Origin: Alphaproteobacteria bacterium
GTDB lineage: Bacteria; Pseudomonadota; Alphaproteobacteria; Bin95
NCBI GenBank assembly: GCA_965220855.1
Contig: CBDCQY010000001.1
Span: 2,522,120-2,586,119 of the forward strand
Direction: 5' to 3'
Length of the DNA: 64,000 nucleotides
In this document: one piece after another, positions 790 to 32,140 of the stretch
Position numbering within the stretch: position 1 is the first letter of the stretch
Layout: every line of letters begins with the position of its first letter
Notes under the pieces: model-generated
What the model saw: the letters and a program-made list of their open reading frames with translations, nothing else
The model's database searches: none
Told to the model about the DNA's origin: nothing
Position numbers and translations under genes: made by a program

Positions 790-2032
790 CGCCCCCGCCG
801 GCGGCCTCACGCGGCGCGACCTCTATCCGCCCGGCGCGATCGCCGCCGTGCTCGCCTTTGGCGGTCTGCCGCTCTACATCCACGCGCCGCGCTACTACGC
901 CGAGGAGTTGGGCGTCGCCCTTCCGGCGCTCGGCGCGATATTGCTGGCGGCGCGCGGCATCGACAGCCTGCAGGATCCGATCATCGGGCGGCTTGCGGAC
1001 CGCTGGCCGCACCATCGCGAGATATGGGTCCTGGTGTCGGGGGGCCTTCTGATCGCCGGCCTTCTCCTGCTGTTCGCGCCGCCGGGCTGGGGCGACCCCT
1101 TGCCCCGGCTCGCGCTCGGTCTGTCGGTCGCCTTTACCGGGTTCAGCGCCCTGCAGATCGCGTTATACGATCACGGCCTCGCCCAGGCGGAGGCTGCAGG
1201 GGGCGGCTACACCCGCATTGCGCTCTGGCGCGAGGCGGGCGGTCTGGTCGGCATCTGCCTTGCCGCGCTGGCGCCGGCGGCGCTGGCCGGACTCGTCGGC
1301 GCTCCCTACGCCCATGTGGGCTATGCGCTCGCGTTTGCGCTGTTTGCCGTGTTCGTCTTCCGCCGCATGCGCGGCTCCTGGCGCTGTTCGGGCCGGTCCC
1401 TGCCATCGGCCGGTCTGGCGGACGCCCTGCGCGTCCCGGGCGTCCGGCCCATTCTCGTCTTCGGCCTCGTCAATGCCCTGCCGACCGCGGTGACCTCGAC
1501 GCTGTTTCTGTTCTTCGTGGCCGATGTACTGGCGGCGGAGGCGCATGCGGGCATCATGCTGCTGGTCTTTTTTGCCGCCGCTGCGGCTGCCGCCCCCGCC
1601 TGGGCGAGGCTCGCAGGCAGGATCGGGCGCAAGCCCACGCTTGCGGCCGGCATGGCGCTCTCCATCCCGGCGTTCGTGTGGGCCTATGCGCTGGGACCGG
1701 GCGATATCGCGGCATTCTACGCGATCGTCATCGCCTCGGGCGCTGCGCTCGGCGCGGACATGACGCTGGCCCCGGCCATGCTGGCGGCCCGGATTCGCGG
1801 CGGCGGCGGACAGGTGTTCGCGCTCTGGACATTTCTGCAGAAAACCGCACTCGCCCTGGCCGCTGGAGTGGCGCTGCCCGCGCTTGCCCTGACGGGTTAC
1901 GAGCCGGGGATATCCGTTGACGAGGGCCGCAAGCCATTGGCCGCCGCGTATGCGCTGGCGCCCTGCGTCCTCAAGCTGGCCGCCATTGCGGTGCTGCTGA
2001 CATGGGTCGAAGACGAAGGAGATCGAGCTTGA
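782..2032 (+). CDS. MFS transporter (GPH/MelB-like)
   Basis: About 12 hydrophobic segments; ARGIDSLQDPIIGRLAD motif; ATG at 782 overlaps the previous gene end. Confidence 0.85.
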   Translation: MTDAPAGGLTRRDLYPPGAIAAVLAFGGLPLYIHAPRYYAEELGVALPALGAILLAARGIDSLQDPIIGRLADRWPHHREIWVLVSGGLLIAGLLLLFAPPGWGDPLPRLALGLSVAFTGFSALQIALYDHGLAQAEAAGGGYTRIALWREAGGLVGICLAALAPAALAGLVGAPYAHVGYALAFALFAVFVFRRMRGSWRCSGRSLPSAGLADALRVPGVRPILVFGLVNALPTAVTSTLFLFFVADVLAAEAHAGIMLLVFFAAAAAAAPAWARLAGRIGRKPTLAAGMALSIPAFVWAYALGPGDIAAFYAIVIASGAALGADMTLAPAMLAARIRGGGGQVFALWTFLQKTALALAAGVALPALALTGYEPGISVDEGRKPLAAAYALAPCVLKLAAIAVLLTWVEDEGDRA

Positions 2033-2586
2033 AGACGAGACCTGTCGCCGGGCTGCGGCGCGGATTCCTGTCGAGGTCGGACGGCCTCGACGCCTATGCC
2101 GCCGGAACGCCGGCCCTCGACCTCAGGAGCTATCTCTGCGGAACGCTGCTTGCGTCGGGAGCCTTCTTCGGCCTCACCGGCCGGATGGAGCGCCGGTTCG
2201 AGATCGAGATGGTCGGCCGCTGGTCCGGAAACAGGGGCACGCTCGACGAACGCCTCTGCTACGACGACGGCGAGACGGCGGACAGGCGCTGGACGCTGGA
2301 CTTTGCCGACGACGGAACGTTCACCGCCACCGCTCCGGACGTCGAGGGCGCGGCGCCGGGAGCGCAGCGGGGTCATGCGGCGGTAATGCGCTACCGGCTG
2401 CGCTTGCCGAGGCCGCGAGGCGAGATCGTTGTCGGGATGGAGGATCGGTTTTTCCTGCTCGACGACGGCACGCTCATCAACCGGGCGCGCATGTCCAAAT
2501 TCGGTCTCAAGGTCGGCGAGGTGGTCGCATTCTTTCGCCGCCCGGCTGCCGGGTCCGCGCCCGAAACGGGGACGGGCCGGTCATGA
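2029..2586 (+). CDS. DUF3833 family protein
   Basis: GTLDERLCYDDG, RRWTL and LINRARMSKFGLKVGEV motifs; TTG start after AAGGAGA. Confidence 0.75.
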   Translation: MKTRPVAGLRRGFLSRSDGLDAYAAGTPALDLRSYLCGTLLASGAFFGLTGRMERRFEIEMVGRWSGNRGTLDERLCYDDGETADRRWTLDFADDGTFTATAPDVEGAAPGAQRGHAAVMRYRLRLPRPRGEIVVGMEDRFFLLDDGTLINRARMSKFGLKVGEVVAFFRRPAAGSAPETGTGRS

Positions 2587-4743: not shown

Positions 4744-7700
4744 CTACCAGGCGACGCGCATTTGCAGGTCGATGCGGGCCTCGGCGTCGCGATGCTCGGT
4801 GGCGAGCCTGGCGTCGAGGCCGCCGGGGGCGGCGAAGGTGAGGCCGGCGGCGCTGCGGGTCTCGCCGCCGTCTTCCGCAACGGCCAGTTCCGCGAAGGGC
4901 GTCAGCAGGCCGCCGGCCGCCGCAAAGCCGTAGCCGGTGCGCGCCGTCATGGAGAGGCCCGCGTCGGCGCGCGCGCCCTCGTCGAAGAGGCGTTCGCGCG
5001 TGAGCGCGCCCGCCTGCTGCGGCCCCCAGGCCGGGCCGAAGGCGAGCGACAGGCCGCGCCCGTCGGCGGACGGCGCGAGCCGCGCCTCCAGGCTCGCGCC
5101 CCATTCCCGCATCCCGTCGGCGGAGTGCAACGCCAGCCAGTGGCTGGACGCATCGAGACCGAAGCGTCCGCCCGCAGACGCCAGACGCGCGCCGCCGCTC
5201 AACTCCATGCCGATCCCGGTCACACCGTCGCCGCTGTCCTTGCGAACCGCCAGCGCGCCGCGCGGCTGAAGCAGCCAGCCAGACCCGGACGAAAGCGCAA
5301 TGCCGTCATGCGACGCTTCCGCGCCGCCTCGAAGACGCCAGTTCGTCGCCTTCAGATCGCCGATCGATGTCGCCGACGAACCCTCCGTCTCGATCCGCGC
5401 CAGGCTCACACCGCCAAACGCCGACCAGGAGAAGCCGCCCCGCCGGGCCACCGGCAGACGGCCGCTCACCGAACCCGCCAGCAGCGACAGGTCCGCCTGC
5501 TCCCCATCGCCCTCCGACGCCCGATGCTCCGCCTCGCCCGCGCCCCGGCCCAGCACCGCGCGCAGCGCGCCGCCATTGCCGGTCGTCACCTGCACATAGG
5601 GCCACACCGTCGTCAGAGAGGTCTCCAGACGGCCCCCGGACTCGTCAAGCCGGTAATCCGCTTCGCTCTTGCCCTGCGAGAGCGCCAGACCGGCCGTCAG
5701 CCCCCCGTCCAGGCGCGCATCCACGCCCAGCCAGCCCGTCCGTTGCTCGCCGTCCCAGCTGCCGCCATCCTTGCGGCCCTCGAAGCCCCGCCAGTCGCCC
5801 CGGCCCCACACCGTCCAGCCGGGGCCGCCCGGAGCCGCGCCCGACGCCGCCAGCGGCAGGGTGAAGGCGCTGCCGCGCAACAGGGACGACCCGTCCATGG
5901 AATAGCCCATCGGCGTCGCCCGGTCGTCCCGGCGATCCGGCCGGTCCCAACGGTCCCGGCGATAGCGATCGACGACCGGCGGCGCGCCGCCGATCCGACG
6001 ACCGGCCAGTGACAGGCCCGGCCCGCCCGACGCCGCATCGAAACGCCGCCCGATAACATCGACCGCGCCGGCGAGCGTCGCCCGCGCCGTCGCCGCCAGC
6101 ATGTGCTTCAGCGCCCGCCGCTCCATTTCCGCCGTCGTCACTTCAATGGTGAAGGACAGCGTGGCCGCATCCGACCCCGACCTGTTGAAGTCCGCGTCCA
6201 CCGCCTGCCAACTGTAGGTCAGGGCCTCCTGCAGCGCCGTCGGCGCGCCGGTGATTTGCCGCGTCGAGGCATCGAGGCTCAGCCCGTCCGGCAGTTCGGG
6301 CGTGAGCGTGTAGGTCAGCGCGCCATTGCCCCCGCTCGCCGCCGGCAATTGCAGCACGCCGATCGTCCGATCCAGCGCGTAACTCTGGTCGGCAATGGCC
6401 GCGTCGCCGAAACTCGGCGCCGTATCCGCCACCACCGCGATGGTGAAGGTCAGCGTCGCTTCGTCATTGTCCTGGTCCGCCACCCGGTATGTATAGGACG
6501 CCGCCGACTGTAGCGTCGTCGGCGCGCCGGCGATCTGCCGCGTCGAGGCATCGAAGCTCAGCCCAGCGGGAAGATCGGGTGAAATCGAGTAGCTCAGCGC
6601 CCCGTTGCCGCCCGTGGCCCGGGGAAGTTGCAGCGCGTCGATCGCCGCGTTCTGCGCGTAAACCCGGTCGGCGATCGCCGCATCGCCGAAACCCGGCGCC
6701 GCGTCCGCCTCCACCGCGATGGTGAAGGTCAGCGTCGCTGCGTCATTGTCCTGGTCGGCCACCCGGTATGTATAGGACGCCGCCGACTGTAGCGTCGTCG
6801 GCGCGCCGGCGATCTGTCGTGTCGAGGCGTCGAAGCTCAGCCCGGCGGGAAGATCGGGTGTGAGCGTATAGCTCAGCGCGCCATTGCCCCCGCTCGCCGC
6901 CGGCAGTTGCAGCGCGCGGATGGCCCTGCCCTGCGACCAGCTTCGGTCGGCAATGGCCGCGTCGCCGAAACCCGGCGCCGCGTCCGCCTCCACCGCGATG
7001 GTGAAGGTCAGCGTCGCTTCGTCACCGTCCTCATCCGCCGCCTTCCAGCTGTAGGTCGTGGCCGGCTGTATCGCCGTCGGCGCGCCGGCGACCTGCCGCG
7101 TCGAGGCGTCGAAGCTCAGCCCGGCGGGAAGATCGGGCGTGAGCGTATAGCTCAGCGCGCCATTGCCGGCGCTCGCCGCCGGCAGTTGCAGCGCGCGGAT
7201 GGCCCTGCCCTGCGACCAGCTTCGGTCGGCAATGGCCGCGTCGCCGAAGCTTGGAACCTTGTCCGCCTCCAACACCGCGATGGTGAAGGTCAGCGTGACT
7301 TCGTCACCGTCCGCGTCCTCCGCCTCGTAGGTGTAGGATGCCGCCGGCTGCATCGCCGTCGGCGCGCCGGTAATTTGCCGCGTCGAGGCGTCGAAGCTGA
7401 GTCCGTCGGGAAGATTGGGTGAGATCGAGTAGCGGATCTCCCCATTGCCGCCCTTGGCTTCCGGAAGCTGCGGCACGCCGACTGCCGAGCCTCTGCGCAC
7501 AACCAGGTCGGCAATGGTCGCGTCGCCGAAGCGTGGCTTCAAGTCCGTGAGGCTCACTTGAATCGAGAAGGTCAGCCTCGCTTCGTCACCGTCCTCGTCC
7601 GCCGCCTTGTAGGTATAGGAGGCCGCCAACTGCGGCGTCGTCGGCGTGCCGGAAATCTGCCGCGTGTCGGCGTCAAAACTCAGCCCGCCGGGAAAACTCA

Positions 7701-8703
7701 GCCCGAAGGAAAAATTGGGCGTGATCGAATAGGTCAGGGGGCCATTGCCGCCGCTCGCCGCCGGCAGTTGCAGCGCGCGGATGGCCTGGTTGAGCGCCCA
7801 GTTTTGGTCGGCAATGGTCGCGTCGCCAAAGCTTGGCTGCGTATCCCCTTCCACCTTGAGCTCGAAGGTCAGCGTGGCTTCGTCATTGTCGTCCTTCGCC
7901 TTGTAAGTATAGGAGGTCGCCGGCCGTATCTCCGTCGGCGTGCCGGAAATCTGCCGCGTGGAAGCGTCGAAGCTCAGCCCGGCGGGAAGATCGGGTGTGA
8001 GCGTATAGCTCAGCGTCCCGCTGCTGTTGCTCCTGGGGGTGGCTTCGGGAAGTTGCAGCGCGGCAATTGCCGTATCAATCCGATAGCGTTGGTCGGCAAT
8101 GGTCGGTTCGGTGAAATGCATCGTCAATGTGATCGTTTTGTTGACGTAGAACCAACGACCTACACCAAGATTGCACCCGAGGCCACTGTTCCATAACGCT
8201 GTTTCTATACCCAACCTTACATCTACGCTACCTGTATCTGGCACATCTGAATCTGGGATGGTGTGTTCCACATACCGCGAATCGACAGTAATATGTTCAT
8301 CAAGCACCTTATGCCTCTCTTCGAACTGATCCTCCGACGCATTCTTCATGTACACGTTCCACATAAGGGCAGGGCACCGGTGCCATGCGCGCACACGAAT
8401 GCTTCGGTCGTCCTGGAGTTCAATTCTCCCGTCACGGATACTAGCCTCAGCGCTTGTAGGAAAGATACAGACGGCCGACAATGCCAAAATGCTTGCAAGC
8501 AGCCCCAGGAACCGGGTCGCCGGTCCGCCGGTCGGACCCTTCAGAAGTGCGGGGGGATACGTCATTGACCGACAGACCGGCGCTGCCCCGAGCAACCGCC
8601 CGGTAGCGGCGCGGAGAGAGCGGACGCCCGAAGCGAGGGCAAGGAGGCTGGCCAGTCCGGGGCCGCCGGTGCGGCCGGTGGAGCGAGAAGATGTCATGGT
8701 CAT
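4744..8703 (-). CDS. Autotransporter-like adhesin: signal peptide, unique tip domain, 7 putative Ig (He_PIG-like) repeats, C-terminal beta-barrel
   Basis: Repeats PSFGDAAIAD..LQLPAASGGNG.LSY.LTPDLPAGLSFDASTRQI.G.PT; helical linker; WTVWGRG barrel start; ends DLQMRVAW. Start uncertain (8703 chosen; the ORF extends to 9039). Confidence 0.8.
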   Translation of the reverse strand: MTMTSSRSTGRTGGPGLASLLALASGVRSLRAATGRLLGAAPVCRSMTYPPALLKGPTGGPATRFLGLLASILALSAVCIFPTSAEASIRDGRIELQDDRSIRVRAWHRCPALMWNVYMKNASEDQFEERHKVLDEHITVDSRYVEHTIPDSDVPDTGSVDVRLGIETALWNSGLGCNLGVGRWFYVNKTITLTMHFTEPTIADQRYRIDTAIAALQLPEATPRSNSSGTLSYTLTPDLPAGLSFDASTRQISGTPTEIRPATSYTYKAKDDNDEATLTFELKVEGDTQPSFGDATIADQNWALNQAIRALQLPAASGGNGPLTYSITPNFSFGLSFPGGLSFDADTRQISGTPTTPQLAASYTYKAADEDGDEARLTFSIQVSLTDLKPRFGDATIADLVVRRGSAVGVPQLPEAKGGNGEIRYSISPNLPDGLSFDASTRQITGAPTAMQPAASYTYEAEDADGDEVTLTFTIAVLEADKVPSFGDAAIADRSWSQGRAIRALQLPAASAGNGALSYTLTPDLPAGLSFDASTRQVAGAPTAIQPATTYSWKAADEDGDEATLTFTIAVEADAAPGFGDAAIADRSWSQGRAIRALQLPAASGGNGALSYTLTPDLPAGLSFDASTRQIAGAPTTLQSAASYTYRVADQDNDAATLTFTIAVEADAAPGFGDAAIADRVYAQNAAIDALQLPRATGGNGALSYSISPDLPAGLSFDASTRQIAGAPTTLQSAASYTYRVADQDNDEATLTFTIAVVADTAPSFGDAAIADQSYALDRTIGVLQLPAASGGNGALTYTLTPELPDGLSLDASTRQITGAPTALQEALTYSWQAVDADFNRSGSDAATLSFTIEVTTAEMERRALKHMLAATARATLAGAVDVIGRRFDAASGGPGLSLAGRRIGGAPPVVDRYRRDRWDRPDRRDDRATPMGYSMDGSSLLRGSAFTLPLAASGAAPGGPGWTVWGRGDWRGFEGRKDGGSWDGEQRTGWLGVDARLDGGLTAGLALSQGKSEADYRLDESGGRLETSLTTVWPYVQVTTGNGGALRAVLGRGAGEAEHRASEGDGEQADLSLLAGSVSGRLPVARRGGFSWSAFGGVSLARIETEGSSATSIGDLKATNWRLRGGAEASHDGIALSSGSGWLLQPRGALAVRKDSGDGVTGIGMELSGGARLASAGGRFGLDASSHWLALHSADGMREWGASLEARLAPSADGRGLSLAFGPAWGPQQAGALTRERLFDEGARADAGLSMTARTGYGFAAAGGLLTPFAELAVAEDGGETRSAAGLTFAAPGGLDARLATEHRDAEARIDLQMRVAW
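6140..8115 (-). repeat. Intragenic tandem repeats, about 279 bp (93 aa) period, 7 units
   Basis: ACCGCGATGGTGAAGGTCAGCGT recurs at 6434, 6713, 6992 and 7274 (spacings 279, 279, 282). Confidence 0.9.
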
Positions 8704-9143
8704 GACGCGAAGACCCCCTCCTGATCGCCTCAGCGCGCAAACCGTAGCAACGGGTGGAACCGGATACAAGGCGTTGCGCGACGCAGTTGCAAAGTCGGGA
8801 GAGGGCCCGGACCGGGTGGTCGTCGCCCTACTCGACCGAAGCGCGACTCCGGCGCGGGATGCGATCCCCCGGAGCACTGCAGAGCGCCACCGATCTCCCA
8901 ATATATTATTTATATTCAACGCGATATAGTATCTTTGCCGACTCATGTTTGTCGGCGCCATCTCCTGCCTACATATGTCCAAAATCACTGTTGATGCTGG
9001 CGCCGCCGATATCGGCCCGACGCGCCAGAATAATGTCAACTTTTGCGATCCTGTTCCATCTTGCCGCTACTGCCGGAGTGGAAAAACGTTCGCGCCATTG
9101 TGGGCCATGGCCTCGGTGAGCAAGGCGGGTTAGGCTCCGCGCC

Positions 9144-25265: not shown

Positions 25266-28200
25266 TCAGAAGCCGAGGCGGAGGTCGAAATGGAGGCGGC
25301 GGTCGTCGGCGGAGCCGCTGCGGGCCTCGCGGCCGCCGGTGAGTTCCAGATCGACGCGGCCCTTCGCGGCCTCGAAGGCGAGGCCGGCTTCGAGCTTGCG
25401 TCGGACGCCCTCTTCCTCCGAGAGGCGGAGCAGGGGCGAGAGCAGGCCGTGGGCCGCCGGCAGGCGGAAGCCGTAGCGGGCCTCCAGTTCGAGCGCCATG
25501 CGGTCTTCGTCGGCCCCGAAGCCGGCCTCGTCATAGTCGAGATCGTCCGCCAGCATTGCGGCCCCGTCGGCGCGCACGCCCGTCGCGAGGCTCGCCGACC
25601 AGGAGAGGCCCGCGCCGTCGGACGCCGGCTCCAGGCCGGCGGTCAGGCTCGCGCCTGTGCCGCCGTAGCCCGCCTCCGAGGAGAGCGCCAGGTGGCGGCC
25701 CTCGGCCTCCAGCGCGAAGCGCGATCCGGGCGCGGCGAGGCGCGCGCCGAAGCCGGCCTCGACGCCCGAGCCTTCGCGCCAGTCGCCCCCGTCGCCGCGC
25801 CAGGCCAGCGAGCCGAAGGGCGCCAGAGACCCGCCGCCGAGGCCCCAGCCCTCATGCTCGGCTTCGAGAGACGCCCTGGCCCGCCAGACCTGCACCTCAT
25901 GCCCGCCGATCACCGAGCGCGCGCTGCCGCCCGTCTCCAGCGTGACGAAGCCCGCGTCCGCCTCCAGGGCGAGGCCGAGCGCGCCGACATCCGCCAGCGG
26001 CTGGCGACCGCCGGCGGAGGCAAGGCGCATCTCCAGCGCCTCGGTCTCGCCCGCGCCCTCCGCCGGGCGGTAATCCACCGAGCCGTTGCCCGCGCCGAGC
26101 ATGGTCCAGACCTCCGCCCCACTGGCGAGCTTCAGCTGCGCATAGGGCCAGGCGGCGCTGAGCGCGGTGGCGAAGCCCGCCCCGTCGCTGGCCTCGGTCT
26201 CGCCGGCGCTTCGCGAGAGCGCGAAGCCCATCAGCAGCCCGTCGCCCATGCGCGCATCCATGCCGAGCCAGCCGGTCTCCATGCGGCTGCGATGGTCGAT
26301 CCCGGCCTGCTCCGCCTCGAAGCGCATCAGCCCGCCGCGCCCCCAGGCCGTCATCTCCATGCCGGCCTCGCCGAAGGCCATCTCGAAGGCGCTGTCGCGA
26401 CGCAATTCCTCCCAGCTCACGCGCCGGTCATCGTCGAACGCCGTCCGGCGCTCCCGCCAGTCGAACTCCGTTGGCGCGGACGCCGCGCCGAACTCGACCC
26501 GCCGCCCGGCCATCGTCAGGCTCGACGCCCCCGGTGAGGCCTCCAGCCGCGCGCCGATCGTCGCCTGCGCCTCGTCCAGCGTCTCGGACGCCAGCCCCGC
26601 CAGGCTCTTGCCGAACGCATCGCGCTCGGCCGAGCCGCCGGCTCCCGCCACCACCTCGATGGTGAAGCTCAAGCTCGCCGTATCGCCATCCGCATCGGTC
26701 GCCGTCCAGCTGTAGCTCGTCGCCGTGGTGACCGCCGTCGGCGTCCCGCTCACCTCACGCGTTACCCCGTCGAGCGCAAGACCCGCCGGCGGAGCCGGCG
26801 TCAGCGTATAGCTCAGCGCCCCGTCGCCACCGGTCGCTTCCGGCAGGGTGAATGCGGTAATCGCCGCGTCCTGCGTGAAGCTCCGGTCCGCCACCGCCGC
26901 ATCGCCGAAGGAAGGCGCCCGGTCCTGCGGCGTCGCCGTCACCCCGACCGTCCCGCCCGCGCCATGTCGAGTCATCGCGCGCAACTCGAAGCGGTAGGCG
27001 GTTCCGTTGGCGAGGCCGGTCACCGCATGGCTGGTCGTGTGACGGTCGCTGCCGGCGATCCGGCTCCAGGCGTCATCGTCGCCGAGGCTCGAACCCGCCG
27101 TAAACCGTATCTGGTAATGATCCAGGTCCGTGTAGGATGGGGGATTCCAGGTCAGCGTGACCCGGCCATTGCCGGCCTCGGCGGCAAGGTTCTGCGGTTC
27201 GCGATAGGTGAAAACCCTGTTCTTGATGACGAATGTCAGGCTGGCGCGATCGCCGTCCTCGTCTTCCACTGTGTAAGTGTATGCGGTGGGAGGGACGGCA
27301 TTCCAGACCGCCCCCGCGAGTTCGCGCGTCGCATTGTCGAAGGTCAGACCCCCCGGCAGATCGGGCGTCAGGCTGTAGCTCAAGGCGCCGTTTCCACCCG
27401 TGGCCGCCGGCAACGTCCAGCTGTAGCCGCCGGGACTGGCGACGAACCAGTCGAATTCCGGGATCGTTTGCGAGCCGAAACTCGGAATATCGCCCGGCGC
27501 CGCCACCCGGATGGCGAAGGTCAGGCTCGCCGCGTCGCCGTCCGCGTCGGTCGCGCTGTAGCTGTAAGTCGCCGCAGCCGCCACCGCCGTCGGCGTCCCG
27601 CTGACGGTGCGCGTCGCCGGATCGAAGGCGAGGCCGGCCGGCAGATCGGGCGTCAGCGCATAGGCCAGCGCCCGGTTGCCGCCCGTCGCCGCCGGCAGGG
27701 TCAGCGCCGTCAGCGCCTCGCCCGTGGTGAAGATCCGGTCCGCGACCGTCGCCGAGCCGAAGGAGGGCGCCAGGTCCGCCTCCACGGCGATGGCGAAGGT
27801 GAGCACCGCCGTCTGGCCGTCCGCGTCCGTCGCGGTCCAGCTGTAGCTCGTCGCCGCCTGCTCGGTCGTCGGCGTCCCGGAGACGGTCTGCGTCGCCGGG
27901 TCGAAGGCGAGGCCGGCCGGCAAATCCGGCGCCAGCGTATGAATGACCGGCGCATTGCCGCCGCTCGCCGCCGGCAAGACAAGCGCCTGGATCGCACTGC
28001 CCTGCACCATATTCAGGTCCGCCACCGTCGCGGTTCCGAAATCGGGGCTGCTGTCCGCCTCCACCGCAATGACGAAGTCTAGGCTGGCCGCATCGCCGTC
28101 CGCGTCGGTCGCGATGTAATTGTAGGTCGCGGCCGCCTGCTGCGCCGCCGGCGCCCCGCTCACCTCACGCGTCGCCGCGTCGAAGACAAGGCCGGCCGGC

Positions 28201-31200
28201 AAGGCGGGAGCGAAACTGTAGCTGAGCGCGCCGTCGCCGCCCTCGGCCGCCGGCAGGGTCAGCGCGGCGATCGCCCGGTTCTCGGCGAAGCTGCGGTCCG
28301 CGATCGCCGCGCCGCCGAAGGAGGGCGCCAGGTCCTCCGCCGTCCCGGTGGCGCTCGCCGCCGGACCTGTGCCGAGGTCGTTGGCGGCGCGCAGCTCGAA
28401 GCTGTAGCTCTCGCCGTTGGCGAGCCCGGAGACGCGATGGCCAGTGGCGTCCGTCGCGAGGTCGGTCCAGGCGTCGGCGTCGGTGAAGGGCAGCGCCGCG
28501 CTCGCCTTCCAGCGCAATTGCAGCGCGCCGATGTCGGAGGTGTTGGGCGGCAAGGCCCAGCTGAGCATGACCGACCCGTTACCGCCGGTCGCCGCCAGGT
28601 CCTCCGGCGCGACCGGGGCCGCATTGGGCTTCGCCGTCACCGAGTCGGACACCTCTGTCCAGCGGAGTTTCAGCGCCCATCTGTGATGGGGCGCCACCGC
28701 GGTGGCGTCCTCCGGGAACCGGATCGGGCGGATGCGGAAGCTGTAGTCCGAACCGTTGTCGAGGCCTGTCACGGTGTGGCCGGTCGTGTCGCGCCCGCTG
28801 CCCTCGATCAGGACCCAGTCCTTGTAATGGGTAAACTTGCTCCCGATTAGCCGCAGATGGTCGGTTTTCGGCATGCTCCGCCCCTTACGGTAGCCGACGA
28901 TATAGCCCTTGATGTCATTATGGGCGGGGTCGGGGGCGCTCCAGGTCAGCGTGACCTCACCATCGCCGGCGGCGGCGGCGAGATTTTTCGGCTTGTCGGG
29001 GAAGGGGAGTTTGTAGGTAATCGAGAAGGTCAGCGACGCCTCGTCGCCATCCTCGTCGGTCACGGTGTAGGTATAGGCGCCGGTACCCCGTCGATAGCCG
29101 GTGAGGCTCACAATCGGTTTCGTTCTGATCTCCCGGCGGGAGGCGTCGAATATCAGGTCGCGATTCCCGACGCCTGCCGGGTGGTCTTTCGGCGCCAGCC
29201 CCGGCGTCAGCGTGTAGGTCAGGTCGCCATCGCCGCCCGACGCCTCCGGGAGCTTTATGAGGACGTCGAACGGCCAGTAGGCGATATGGTCCGGCGCGGT
29301 CGCCGCGCCGAAGGAGGGGGCCGCGCCCCCCGCAACCCGCATGACGAAGGTCAGGCTCGCCGTGTCGCCATCCGCATCGGTCGCCGTCCAGCGATAGCTG
29401 GCGCCGACCGTCCGGTCCGACGGCGCGCCGGCGATCCGGCGCGTCGCCATATCGAGGGTCAGGCCGTCCGGCAGCGCGGGCGTCAGCTCATAGGTCAGCG
29501 GTCCGTTGCCGCCGCCGGCCTCGGGCAGCGTCACCGCCGCAACAGGCTGGCCCTGGCGGAAGGTCCGGTCCGGCGCCTTCGCCGCGCCGAAGGACGGCGC
29601 GACATCCGCCGGCGTCTCGAGGGTGAAGGTGAGCGTCGCCGCATCGCCGTCCGCATCGGTCGCGCTGTAGCTGTACGTCGCCGCAGCCGTCACCGCCGTC
29701 GGCGTCCCGGTCACCTCGCGCGTCGCCGCGTCGAAGGCGAGGCCGTCCGGCAAGGCCGGCGTCAGCGCGTAGGCCAGCGCGCCGTCGCCGCCGGTCGCCG
29801 CCGGGAGGGTCATGGCGGCGACCGGGATGCCCACCGTGAAGCTCCGGTCCGCCACCGTCTGCGCGCCGAAGCCGGGCGCGAGGTCCAGCAGTTCCTCCGA
29901 GACCGTCGAGGCCGGGCCGGCGCCGCTCCCGTTGACCGCCCGGACCTGGAAGCGCCAGACCGCCTTTTCGGTGAGGCCCGCCACCCGGTGGCGGGTGGCG
30001 GACGCGCCGCTGCCGGGAATCGCGCTCCAGGCGTCGTTCGCCCCGAAGCTCGCCGCGCTGGTGTAGCGCAATTCGTAACCGGTGACGGTCGGGTCGGAGG
30101 GACCGCTCCATCCGAGCGCCATCTCTCCGGCCCCGGCCGTCGCCTGGAGGTCGGAGGGGGCGGCCGGCAACCGGACATGCGGCGTCGCGGCGACGCTTGC
30201 CGCCCTGCCCGCGCCCAGCCCGTTCGCCGCGCGCAGCTCGAAGCTGTAAGCGACGCCATTGGTGAGGCCGGTGACGCGATGGCCGGTGGCGTCGCCGGGG
30301 AGATCGGTCCAGCCGTCGCCGGCGGTGAAGGGCAGCGCCGAACTCGCCTTCCAGCGCAATTGCTGCTTCGCGATATCGGGCGTGTTGGTCGGCGGCGCCC
30401 AGCCCAGCACCATCGCGCCATTGTCGGCGCTCGCCGCGAGCCCCGTCGGCGCCTCCGGGATCGCGTTCGGCGTCGCCGTCACCGCATCCGAGGCTCTGCT
30501 CTTGTTGGTGATGCCGTTGCCGCGGTAAACGGCGCGAATCTGAAACGCATATTGCGCGCCATTCTCCAGTCCCGTCACGACATGGCTCGTCGCGCCGCCG
30601 CTGCTGCCGGCAATCCCGGTCCAGCCGCCATCGCCGTCGAAACGCCCGCCCTTCCTGTAGCGGAGCTCGTAATCGCTCATATAGGGATCGTCCGGATCGT
30701 CCCAGCTGAGCGTCACCTGACGATCGCCCGACAGAGCGGCGAGGTTCAGGGGTTTGCCGGGCTGGATATAGCCGAGTCTCAGCTTGAACGTCAACGTGGC
30801 CTGCTGACCGGCCTGGTCCGTCGCCGTCAGGGTGTAGGTCGTGAAGGTCCACGACGTTCCCCTGGCCGAACCCCAACCCCTGATCCGCCGGTCCGAGGAC
30901 GTGAAGGCGAGACCTTTGGGCAGCGCCGGCGTCACCGCATAGCTCACCGCGCCCGAGCCGCCCTTCGCCGCCGGCAGCTCGCGGTTATGCTCCGTCCATT
31001 GGAACAGCAAGCTGTACTCCAGCACGCCGACGTCACCGAATGTCAGCGCATATCGCGCCTCGGGCGTCGCCGACGCCTCGGCCGAGGCCGGGCCGGGACC
31101 GCCGGCATTCACCGCCCGGACCTGGAAGCGCCATTCCATATCGTTGGCGAGGCCCGCCACCGCATGGCCGGTGGTGGAGGCGTTGCTGCCGGAAATCGCG

Positions 31201-31844
31201 CTCCAGGCGTCGCCCGCCCCGAAGCTCGCATTCGAGGTGTAGCGCAACTCATAGCCGGTAATCGTCGGGTCGGAAGGATCGTCCCAGGCCAGCCGCACCT
31301 TGCCGTCGCCCGCCGTCGCCAGCAAGCCCGAGGGCATGGCGGGCGGCGTTCCCTGGGGCGTCGCCGTCGCAACGGCGGACGCCGGCCCGTAATCCCGGTA
31401 GGAATCCCACGACCACCAGTCGGGATAGACATTGTAGGCCCGGCGGATCTGGAAGATATAGGCCGCGCCGTTCTCCAGCCCCGTTACGGTGTGGCTGGTC
31501 GTGCCGGAGCCGCTATTGGCGATATCCCGCCAGACGCCGCCGCTTTCGGGGAAGCTCGCGCCCTTGTGGTAGCGGAGCTGATAGCCGGCGATCCACCAGT
31601 CCTGCCCATTGTCCGGCCCTGGGTTATAGGCGCTCCAGGTCAGGGTGACTTCGCCCGCGCCCGCCGTCGCGGCGAAACCGCCGGGCCTGTCCGGCGTATA
31701 GGCCTCCGCCAGCGGCGCAACGGCCAGCAGGAAGAGCGCCGCCAGCGCGGCCATCCAGCCGGAACGGGGCCTTCGGTTCGCCACCTTCGTGGCGTTATTC
31801 CGGCCCTTTTCGACCACGAACATATGATGTTTAGCGGACATCAT
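25266..31844 (-). CDS. Giant autotransporter-like adhesin with 8 fibronectin type III and 9 putative Ig repeats and a C-terminal beta-barrel
   Basis: Fn3 consensus (L.A.AG.G.V.L.W..Y.LRY..H.V.GL.NG..Y.F.LRA); Ig repeats as in 4744-8703; AWGRGG barrel start; ends FDLRLGF; AEA|Y signal cleavage; ATG 31844 after GGGGAGAGG. Confidence 0.85.
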   Translation of the reverse strand: MMSAKHHMFVVEKGRNNATKVANRRPRSGWMAALAALFLLAVAPLAEAYTPDRPGGFAATAGAGEVTLTWSAYNPGPDNGQDWWIAGYQLRYHKGASFPESGGVWRDIANSGSGTTSHTVTGLENGAAYIFQIRRAYNVYPDWWSWDSYRDYGPASAVATATPQGTPPAMPSGLLATAGDGKVRLAWDDPSDPTITGYELRYTSNASFGAGDAWSAISGSNASTTGHAVAGLANDMEWRFQVRAVNAGGPGPASAEASATPEARYALTFGDVGVLEYSLLFQWTEHNRELPAAKGGSGAVSYAVTPALPKGLAFTSSDRRIRGWGSARGTSWTFTTYTLTATDQAGQQATLTFKLRLGYIQPGKPLNLAALSGDRQVTLSWDDPDDPYMSDYELRYRKGGRFDGDGGWTGIAGSSGGATSHVVTGLENGAQYAFQIRAVYRGNGITNKSRASDAVTATPNAIPEAPTGLAASADNGAMVLGWAPPTNTPDIAKQQLRWKASSALPFTAGDGWTDLPGDATGHRVTGLTNGVAYSFELRAANGLGAGRAASVAATPHVRLPAAPSDLQATAGAGEMALGWSGPSDPTVTGYELRYTSAASFGANDAWSAIPGSGASATRHRVAGLTEKAVWRFQVRAVNGSGAGPASTVSEELLDLAPGFGAQTVADRSFTVGIPVAAMTLPAATGGDGALAYALTPALPDGLAFDAATREVTGTPTAVTAAATYSYSATDADGDAATLTFTLETPADVAPSFGAAKAPDRTFRQGQPVAAVTLPEAGGGNGPLTYELTPALPDGLTLDMATRRIAGAPSDRTVGASYRWTATDADGDTASLTFVMRVAGGAAPSFGAATAPDHIAYWPFDVLIKLPEASGGDGDLTYTLTPGLAPKDHPAGVGNRDLIFDASRREIRTKPIVSLTGYRRGTGAYTYTVTDEDGDEASLTFSITYKLPFPDKPKNLAAAAGDGEVTLTWSAPDPAHNDIKGYIVGYRKGRSMPKTDHLRLIGSKFTHYKDWVLIEGSGRDTTGHTVTGLDNGSDYSFRIRPIRFPEDATAVAPHHRWALKLRWTEVSDSVTAKPNAAPVAPEDLAATGGNGSVMLSWALPPNTSDIGALQLRWKASAALPFTDADAWTDLATDATGHRVSGLANGESYSFELRAANDLGTGPAASATGTAEDLAPSFGGAAIADRSFAENRAIAALTLPAAEGGDGALSYSFAPALPAGLVFDAATREVSGAPAAQQAAATYNYIATDADGDAASLDFVIAVEADSSPDFGTATVADLNMVQGSAIQALVLPAASGGNAPVIHTLAPDLPAGLAFDPATQTVSGTPTTEQAATSYSWTATDADGQTAVLTFAIAVEADLAPSFGSATVADRIFTTGEALTALTLPAATGGNRALAYALTPDLPAGLAFDPATRTVSGTPTAVAAAATYSYSATDADGDAASLTFAIRVAAPGDIPSFGSQTIPEFDWFVASPGGYSWTLPAATGGNGALSYSLTPDLPGGLTFDNATRELAGAVWNAVPPTAYTYTVEDEDGDRASLTFVIKNRVFTYREPQNLAAEAGNGRVTLTWNPPSYTDLDHYQIRFTAGSSLGDDDAWSRIAGSDRHTTSHAVTGLANGTAYRFELRAMTRHGAGGTVGVTATPQDRAPSFGDAAVADRSFTQDAAITAFTLPEATGGDGALSYTLTPAPPAGLALDGVTREVSGTPTAVTTATSYSWTATDADGDTASLSFTIEVVAGAGGSAERDAFGKSLAGLASETLDEAQATIGARLEASPGASSLTMAGRRVEFGAASAPTEFDWRERRTAFDDDRRVSWEELRRDSAFEMAFGEAGMEMTAWGRGGLMRFEAEQAGIDHRSRMETGWLGMDARMGDGLLMGFALSRSAGETEASDGAGFATALSAAWPYAQLKLASGAEVWTMLGAGNGSVDYRPAEGAGETEALEMRLASAGGRQPLADVGALGLALEADAGFVTLETGGSARSVIGGHEVQVWRARASLEAEHEGWGLGGGSLAPFGSLAWRGDGGDWREGSGVEAGFGARLAAPGSRFALEAEGRHLALSSEAGYGGTGASLTAGLEPASDGAGLSWSASLATGVRADGAAMLADDLDYDEAGFGADEDRMALELEARYGFRLPAAHGLLSPLLRLSEEEGVRRKLEAGLAFEAAKGRVDLELTGGREARSGSADDRRLHFDLRLGF

Positions 31845-32140
31845 ACCTCTCCCCTGTCCCGACATTTCGGTTGCCGCCTGGCGCGGATTGCGCCCTCGGG
31901 CGGTCGCAGACGGCGCCCCTGTTTCCCGGACCTTCATGACACGCAACTCCGGCGCAAGCTTCACCGAGCCGGATTGCAGCGTATCGACTCTTTCAGAAGG
32001 CGTGCAACAGAAAAAATCGATAATTTCTCAGGACACGAAAATGTGATTGGAAACAGGCGCATCCACAAGACAGAAGATATTTCTCTCTATCGTCGCAAAG
32101 ACAGGCCGACTTCGGCCCCGGACGGGGCGGTGCGAGGCGG

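Follow-up and report, generated by a model that had tools for sequence, protein, structure and literature searches.

Does the giant repeat protein encoded in this stretch of DNA belong to a rapidly diversifying receptor system, or is it a surface fibre whose unusual modules are fixed? The window (the whole stretch analyzed, 64,000 nucleotides [nt] of alphaproteobacterial contig CBDCQY010000001.1, assembly GCA_965220855.1, positions 2,522,120 to 2,586,119) carries on its minus strand a single open reading frame (ORF) of 2232 codons (window 25266..31964). An initial annotation had described the product as an adhesin built of fibronectin type III (Fn3) and immunoglobulin (Ig)-like domains, some of them hypervariable, and had proposed a variable-receptor system with independently diversified heads. 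Our analysis favors, with a probability of roughly 0.8, a fibrillar-adhesin-like autotransporter with fixed module subtypes over a rapidly changing receptor.

The extent of the gene and the order of its domains are as first described. The probable start is the ATGATG at 31844/31841, preceded by a GGAGAGG ribosome-binding site, and the one orthologue in the protein collection searched (P0002) begins at the second Met of this pair. The encoded protein of approximately 2,190 residues opens with what appears, by inspection of the translation, to be a signal peptide, with a basic n-region, the hydrophobic stretch MAALAALFLLAVAPLA, and an Ala-x-Ala site (AEA) followed by Y. Pfam recognizes eight fn3 stretches (E 4.4e-73) and eight He_PIG stretches (E 3.5e-68). 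Cutting the protein at its repeating boundaries and aligning the pieces yields eight Fn3 and nine He_PIG Ig-like domains (D01 to D17, counted from the N terminus), followed by an anchor of 458 residues ending in HFDLRLGF, and hidden Markov models built from the gene's own domains return exactly the order FFIFFFIIIFFIIIIFI plus the anchor. The protein thus combines 17 tandem stalk domains with a cell-surface anchor, as fibrillar adhesins do. Anchor and architecture support the earlier description of a large, outer membrane-anchored multidomain surface protein, which would be secreted along the route discussed below.

Five of the domains (D01, D03, D09, D10, and D15) had been marked as divergent, and the nine loop peptides quoted from them are all found where they were reported. 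These domains are the least like their siblings (30 to 47% identity versus 50 to 73% among the stereotyped Igs), contain 9 to 16% aromatic residues (Phe, Trp, and Tyr) versus 5 to 9% in the others, and are poorer in Ala, Thr, and Asp. They depart from the stereotyped modules mainly through substitutions and insertions between predicted beta-strands, the inserts being rich in aromatic and basic residues. The lower guanine-plus-cytosine (GC) content ascribed to them was also borne out by measurement (0.63 to 0.68 versus 0.71 to 0.77 in other domains). This dip is mostly a matter of amino acid composition (GC at codon positions 1 and 2, 0.566 versus 0.643), with a smaller share from the third position (GC3, 0.832 versus 0.890). 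The unmarked D04 (0.650) and D16 (0.677) are equally low, so that low GC is not exclusive to the marked set, and we rejected it as a sign of foreign DNA since it is mainly a composition effect.

What had been called hypervariability is divergence among the domains of a single protein, which is a different matter from a domain that varies over time or from strain to strain; the tests of variability that were possible showed none. The orthologue P0002 (2186 amino acids [aa]) is identical at 2095 of 2191 positions (96%), with five gapped positions, and has the same domain order with no sign of a module swap. Five of the nine quoted loops are identical in it, and the other four differ at one to three residues. 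In this comparison, which has little statistical power, loops differ at 6 of 130 residues and the rest of the passenger at 60 of 1556 (Fisher p=0.64); likewise, 19 of 542 residues are changed in the marked domains versus 47 of 1144 in the unmarked ones (p=0.59). D01 differs at 3 of 117 residues, none of them in the listed loops, D15 differs at only 1 of 94, and D09-D10 is 95% identical. As far as the data reach, then, the loops change at the rate of the framework, the kind of outcome that the initial annotation had itself named as refuting its idea, and this speaks against a diversification system.

Assembled contigs from four public sequencing runs (X1 to X4) agree, covering the marked regions with zero to two differences. 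No difference was found over 30690-31751 in X1 and X2, over 30227-31964 in X4, over 28489-28886 in X2, or over 27249-27506 in X1 and X2; there was one over 28458-29051 in X1, and there were two over 31005-31763 in X3. The contigs are in fragments, and paralogs that map at 88% account for many of their joints and deviating letters; we did not count these as rearrangement. The most changed domain between the two strains is the membrane-proximal D17, at 13 of 93 residues. The orthologue's D17 is 90.3% identical to the membrane-proximal Ig of a paralog at genome position C1:1575160 versus 86.0% to the D17 of this gene, and to judge from the sequences, the difference looks like gene conversion from that paralog.

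The complete genome also failed to provide the parts of a diversifying machinery. Its single RVT_1 match is a retron reverse transcriptase of type IX (PADLOC RT_IX, E 3.2e-125), approximately 670 kb from the gene, whose best NCBIfam match is also a retron family; with this as the sole reverse transcriptase, a diversity-generating retroelement (DGR) was rejected. A genome-wide blastn-short search with the nine loop DNAs and their flanks found no second copy, the sole match being a homologous paralog domain for one loop (88% over 50 nt). Silent cassettes and template repeats were rejected given the lack of second copies and of any relative of D09 or D10 above 47% in the genome. The same holds for an invertase, a recombinase, or phase variation: the genome has no Resolvase-family (serine invertase) match, the nearest of its 12 tyrosine recombinase matches lies approximately 870 kb from the gene, and no simple-sequence tract, long inverted repeat, or invertible-promoter repeats occur upstream or at the 5' end of the gene. 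As a separate observation, the retron reverse transcriptase (333 aa; locus L001, genome C1:1877237-1880815, ORF 1318-2319, minus strand) lies in a low-GC island and adjoins an ORF that appears transposase-like, a call made by appearance without a family-library scan; it is unrelated to the adhesin gene.

Where, then, do the unusual modules come from? D01 shares 55 to 60% identity with the first domain of three paralogs, which also have the Trp-rich BC and FG insertions, though not with the same length and details, and counterparts of D01 are likewise the leading domain in proteins of other genomes. Two paralogs have a third domain 58% identical to D03, a subtype that recurs at 58 to 68% across paralogs and other genomes with the GWGSARG loop retained. 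D15 has 70% identical counterparts at the same position in two paralogs and 65 to 68% identical ones in proteins of other genomes, and D15, D16, D17, and the anchor together are collinear with two paralogs at 70 to 90% identity. Overall, the D01, D03, and D15 types are found in other genomes' proteins at 60 to 68%, with much of the D01 FG motif kept. On sequence grounds, D01, D03, and D15 are inherited module subtypes at corresponding positions, contrary to the independently diversified heads that had been suggested.

The D09-D10 pair occurs in this gene and its orthologue alone; other sequences of the genome match it at 41 to 47% at best, and the best match in the congeners (16 species) is 49% over 110 residues. 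In an AF2 model of the pair (predicted local distance difference test score [pLDDT] 83.3, predicted TM-score [pTM] 0.70), the inserts noted earlier all fall between strands, at lowered confidence, and are predicted to occupy an Ig loop (residues 46-56 in pair numbering), the Fn3 C-C' loop (151-170), and the FG loop (202-222). Among 31 aligned Ig-Fn3 pairs, these positions are gapped in 59 to 70% of the other pairs, and conservation is higher in strand columns than elsewhere (majority residue 0.55 versus 0.41, p=9e-5); the strands of D09-D10 itself are only 40% identical to those of other pairs. The analogy with engineered monobodies drawn in the initial annotation applies only loosely: the D01 inserts do align at the BC and FG positions, whereas those of D10 would lie in C-C' and FG, at opposite poles, and not in BC and FG.

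A further claim, that every Ig directly preceding an Fn3 is divergent, is true within this gene (3 of 3). Genome-wide, the 33 Igs in this position have a lower mean identity to the family (0.459 versus 0.524; Mann-Whitney p=1.7e-6, overstated as the domains are kin), and 21 of them fall below the 25th percentile of other Igs, but the remaining 12 are within the normal range of Igs that precede an Ig. This is a tendency, not a law. In 26 of the 33 cases, the closest relative is itself an Ig that precedes an Fn3.

The gene is part of a lineage-specific expansion. In this 100%-complete Paracoccaceae genome (3.56 Mb, two contigs, 70% GC), 35 ORFs totaling 199,599 nt (5.6% of the genome) carry the modules or the anchor, 33 of them the same anchor, and the family amounts to 144 Ig and 151 Fn3 domains. 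The anchor matches 36 times here versus 1 to 16 times per genome in all 16 congeneric species searched, and was found in neither of two other genera of the family and in 1 of 12 genomes from other families. Six anchors are 93 to 96% identical over the barrel, whereas the best anchor in the other species searched reaches at most 43%; a metagenome-assembled genome from the Paracoccaceae has anchors that are 77% identical. The passenger itself is a mosaic: D01, D03, D04, and D14-D18 are collinear with paralog counterparts at 58 to 90% identity (D14 is 83% identical to a paralog's domain), the N-terminal block following one paralog region and the C-terminal block another.

How the protein might reach the surface is suggested by its anchor. 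With HMMER, 3152 cluster representatives match the anchor at E<=1e-3, and among the 150 matches listed, it lies almost always at or near the C terminus, in proteins of very different length. PF03797 (Autotransporter) matches 11 of 15 scanned homologues, which were chosen among the shorter ones and are 30 to 42% identical to the query anchor, 10 of them above the curated cut-off. Since this family is matched by homologues and not by the anchor itself, the homology is transitive, not direct. A side observation is that this anchor family is large, yet the member studied here and 4 of the 15 scanned homologues go unmatched by Pfam. An AF2 model of the anchor from 38 aligned sequences (pLDDT 86.5, pTM 0.80) has a helix of 33 residues that leads into a large barrel. 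When it was compared by VIA-align with all 48,161 representative PDB chains, autotransporter translocators took ranks 1 to 5 and 7: NalP (Z 17.4; root mean square deviation 4.8 over 229 aligned residues), EstA (16.9), Hbp (16.3), AaaA (16.2), EspP (15.2), and, seventh, AIDA-I (15.2). These alignments take in the N-terminal helix and span model residues 1-373, and approximately 85 residues (374-458) lie outside the part aligned to the 12-stranded translocators; Foldseek returned generic barrel matches only. The 33 genomic anchors end in F (30), W (2), or L (1) behind an alternating LRL-type motif. We read the predicted structure as a divergent, enlarged autotransporter-type barrel.

In the reading we prefer, a Sec signal peptide would direct the protein to the periplasm, where the C-terminal helix and barrel would insert in the outer membrane and carry the passenger to the surface in a manner like that of type Va autotransporters. 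The 17 beta-sandwich beads (8 Fn3, 9 He_PIG Ig-like) may then project as a rod with D01 at its distal tip. The stereotyped Ala/Thr/Asp-rich Igs would be young or homogenized spacer copies, and the marked domains older, position-specific subtypes (a tip Fn3, the Igs that stand where Ig passes to Fn3, and an Fn3 whose loops carry insertions) that probably came down through the duplication of blocks, both inside a paralog and from one paralog to another. The aromatic and basic loops of these subtypes are possibly ligand-contact surfaces, fixed in sequence and without a dedicated diversifying mechanism. Change between strains would consist of ordinary substitutions and occasional gene conversion from paralogs in the stereotyped, anchor-proximal part. 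Paralogs have come to carry different loops in the course of evolution, and nothing points to ongoing or programmed variation. This reading draws on the architecture, the gene family, the homology and fold of the anchor, and the findings that the orthologue keeps the loops and that DGR parts are missing.

A number of observations weigh against it. The between-strain comparison depends on a single 96%-identical orthologue and six loop changes; no other orthologue was found in the 16 congeneric species genomes or among proteins of 129-412 aa. Change in D09 (4.7%) and D10 (5.4%) slightly exceeds the overall 3.9%, and the D10 FG insert has 3 changes in 21 residues. The run contigs are assemblies that drop rare variants and may include the source strain or near-clones, and thus cover population variability weakly. 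Among paralogs, loops differ more than strands (majority residue 0.41 versus 0.55), a pattern that would agree with long-term selection for different specificities. With respect to function, no recognized adhesive domain was found, only Fn3- and Ig-type families scoring above the Pfam and NCBIfam cut-offs, and the term adhesin is taken from the architecture. As for the anchor, the last 427 residues of the protein match no Pfam family at E<=10, and neither phmmer nor a profile finds a sequence match in the PDB. DSSP assigns approximately 19 beta-segments after residue 85 of the predicted structure versus 12 strands in classical translocators, and other barrel folds score Z 14-15 versus up to 17 for the translocators, a modest margin. 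Because there is no direct sequence match, because the beta-segments number approximately 19, and because the structural margin is modest, we infer the autotransporter export route. The rod geometry and the adhesive role are inferred as well.

These points have to be set against what the alternatives would require. A programmed variable-receptor system, in which the marked modules are hypervariable heads altered by a DGR, cassette recombination, or something similar, would accommodate the paralogous loops that differ in sequence and length on better-conserved strands, the aromatic and basic inserts of a kind often seen in binding loops, and the changed residues in the D10 FG insert. We nevertheless hold it to be extremely improbable. 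More than half of the loops are identical in the orthologue and the loops as a whole change no faster than the framework, the only RVT_1 match is a distant retron, and the loop DNAs have no second copy beyond one homologous paralog domain. Resolvase, nearby tyrosine recombinases, and upstream repeats are all missing, and the loop motifs of D01, D03, and D15 are partly conserved across genomes. Variation might instead arise at the level of the family, with the 33 paralogs forming a recombining library in which conversion or unequal exchange reshuffles stalk and head modules onto homogenized anchors, so that strains come to differ at their surfaces with no enzyme devoted to the task, in the manner of the Helicobacter Bab paralogs. 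Such a repertoire would sit well with the six near-identical anchors, the mosaic passenger, and the D17 of the orthologue. Domains with a higher mean identity to the family, moreover, tend to have a higher GC3 (rho 0.31, p=1.5e-4; the domains in this correlation are related), a trend that fits GC-biased conversion among stereotyped copies. We consider it unlikely all the same, given that the single probable conversion patch lies in a spacer domain and not in a head, that the two strains share their domain order with only five gapped positions and no module swap, and that conversion among repeats is general to repeated DNA and need not be functional.

The protein might also be no adhesin at all, and be instead a surface coat or spacer, a polysaccharide or nutrient binder, or a "eukaryotic-like" Fn3/Ig host modulator, in which the divergent modules serve folding and inter-domain packing at Ig-to-Fn3 junctions and not ligand binding. 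The lack of a known adhesive domain would agree with this, as would the tendency of divergent Igs to occupy these junctions and the pTM of the D09-D10 model; in an Fn3 fold, the FG loop is at the end turned toward the domain before it. Yet the 12 ordinary Igs indicate that such a junction can do without a divergent one, D01 at the tip diverges although it stands at no such junction, and the C-C' insert of D10 points away from D09, so that we regard this explanation as rather improbable. Equally doubtful is the bolder idea of a multi-headed fibre, in which D01, D03, D09-D10, and D15 would be separate ligand-binding heads spaced along the stalk and not confined to the tip, and the 33 paralogs, with their near-identical enlarged anchors, would supply a combinatorial set of heads reshuffled between strains by gene conversion; if true, a marine Paracoccaceae lineage would diversify its surface with no dedicated enzyme. 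The fibrillar-adhesin-like autotransporter with fixed subtypes thus remains our preferred reading, and the coordinates of its parts are collected in Table 1.

Table 1. Parts of the gene and its upstream leader, from the 5' side to the C-terminal anchor (window coordinates)
Feature	Position	Strand	Basis or remark
AT-richer intergenic leader	31845..32140	-	GC 0.59-0.62; GGAGAGG ribosome-binding site just before ATGATG
N-terminal leader and Sec-type signal peptide (MMSAKHH...RRPRSGWMAALAALFLLAVAPLAEA, then YTPD)	31701..31844	-	Translation
D01, tip Fn3 (marked), Trp-rich insertions at BC and FG positions	31350..31700	-	Pfam, domain alignment
D02, Fn3, same type as D06 (63% identical)	31056..31349	-	Domain alignment
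D03, divergent He_PIG Ig (marked), precedes an Fn3	30768..31055	-	Domain alignment
D04-D06, three Fn3; D05 62% identical to D11	29883..30767	-	Domain alignment
D07-D08, stereotyped Ala/Thr/Asp-rich He_PIG Ig	29325..29882	-	Pfam, domain alignment, composition
D09 (Ig, marked) and D10 (Fn3, marked); predicted inserts in one Ig loop and in Fn3 C-C' and FG loops	28620..29324	-	Comparison, AF2 model
D11 (Fn3) and D12-D14 (stereotyped Ig)	27489..28619	-	Domain alignment
D15, divergent Ig (marked), precedes an Fn3	27207..27488	-	Counterparts in paralogs and other genomes
D16 (Fn3) and D17 (membrane-proximal stereotyped Ig)	26643..27206	-	D17 is the between-strain hot spot
C-terminal anchor: predicted long alpha-helix (domain residues 2-34), then large beta-barrel ending LRLGF	25269..26642	-	AF2 model, structural matches

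Metabolic genes surround the one studied here (TauD, an oxidoreductase, a histidine phosphatase, an HgmA-like protein, and an acyl-CoA dehydrogenase), a setting that suits a self-exporting protein. Neither secretion genes among the neighbors nor RTX (repeats-in-toxin) repeats in a Pfam scan of the protein were seen. Several other members of the family deserve mention in their own right. A second one lies in the window at 4744-9066 on the minus strand (genome C1:2526863-2531185); it encodes 1440 aa with seven He_PIG Igs and the same type of anchor, which ends in RVAW and is approximately 36 to 40% identical to the anchor studied here. The closest paralog looks split (genome C1:1573514-1586859, loci L010 and L015): an ORF of 1451 aa without an anchor overlaps by approximately 160 nt one of 3050 aa without the N-terminal tip, and one Ig is read in two frames, which reflects a frameshift, a pseudogene, or an assembly error. 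Two short remnants (genome C1:1527419-1528513 and C1:2930965-2932992, 364 and 675 aa), whose anchor matches come in two pieces approximately 90% identical to the studied anchor, are probably decayed copies. Two family members, the C2:85104 gene and the C1:1563854-1586859 cluster, have tyrosine recombinase matches 3 to 8 kb away (C2:77956-82262 and C1:1594665-1595156) and might be on or beside mobile DNA. A search of metagenome contigs with the protein gave a single unrelated match (26%) and no orthologue.

How does this protein compare with known surface fibres? In classical autotransporters, the passenger is usually a beta-helix. In inverse autotransporters (intimin, invasin) and in the RTX adhesins of type I secretion systems (SiiE, LapA type), tandem Ig-like rods hold the binding part off the cell; unlike in these, the barrel is C-terminal here, the free end is the N terminus, and RTX repeats and neighboring secretion genes are lacking. 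The closest resemblance is to the type Va autotransporters (AIDA-I, NalP, Hbp, EspP, EstA), which likewise combine a signal peptide, a passenger, a linker helix, and a C-terminal barrel with an aromatic end in one polypeptide; homologues of the anchor match PF03797, and these translocators are its best structural matches. Different from them are the string of Fn3 and He_PIG Ig domains that serves as passenger and the anchor, which with approximately 455 aa and approximately 19 predicted beta-segments instead of 12 strands is too divergent for Pfam and PDB sequence searches.

The notion of a fixed scaffold that presents variable ligand-binding residues is all that the protein shares with DGR targets of the Bordetella phage Mtd type; here, neither a DGR reverse transcriptase nor a template repeat is present, and the loops are conserved between strains. 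The Helicobacter pylori Bab paralogs are similar in being paralogous surface proteins with homogenized membrane anchors and signs of conversion between paralogs, but the family described here is far larger (33 genes), has a modular repeat passenger and an unrelated fold, and shows no module swap between the two strains compared. Finally, Monzon, Lafita and Bateman 2021 (PMC8286594) name PF03797 among the most prevalent anchors of fibrillar adhesins in Proteobacteria. With fibrillar adhesins as defined by these authors, the protein has in common a long monomeric surface fibre with tandem stalk domains and a cell-envelope anchor; it differs in that no adhesive domain is recognized and the candidate binding surfaces are modified stalk-type domains along the fibre. 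Set against the known kinds, the protein stands out by a passenger of Fn3 and Ig domains, by an anchor that is enlarged and divergent in sequence, by having no recognized adhesive domain, and by a family expanded to 33 genes. Our literature search found no paper that joins He_PIG with autotransporters and, judging by titles, none on this family.

The finding does not open a long-standing question, and the idea of a variable receptor, which would have been striking had it held, does not hold. What emerges is an uncharacterized family of autotransporter-type fibres with an Fn3/Ig passenger and an enlarged anchor that current domain libraries miss. It has grown to 33 genes, approximately 5.6% of a small genome. 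The family constitutes a natural set of stable Fn3/Ig scaffolds with different loop insertions, and a case in which to follow how repeat domains are homogenized or kept distinct within one genome.

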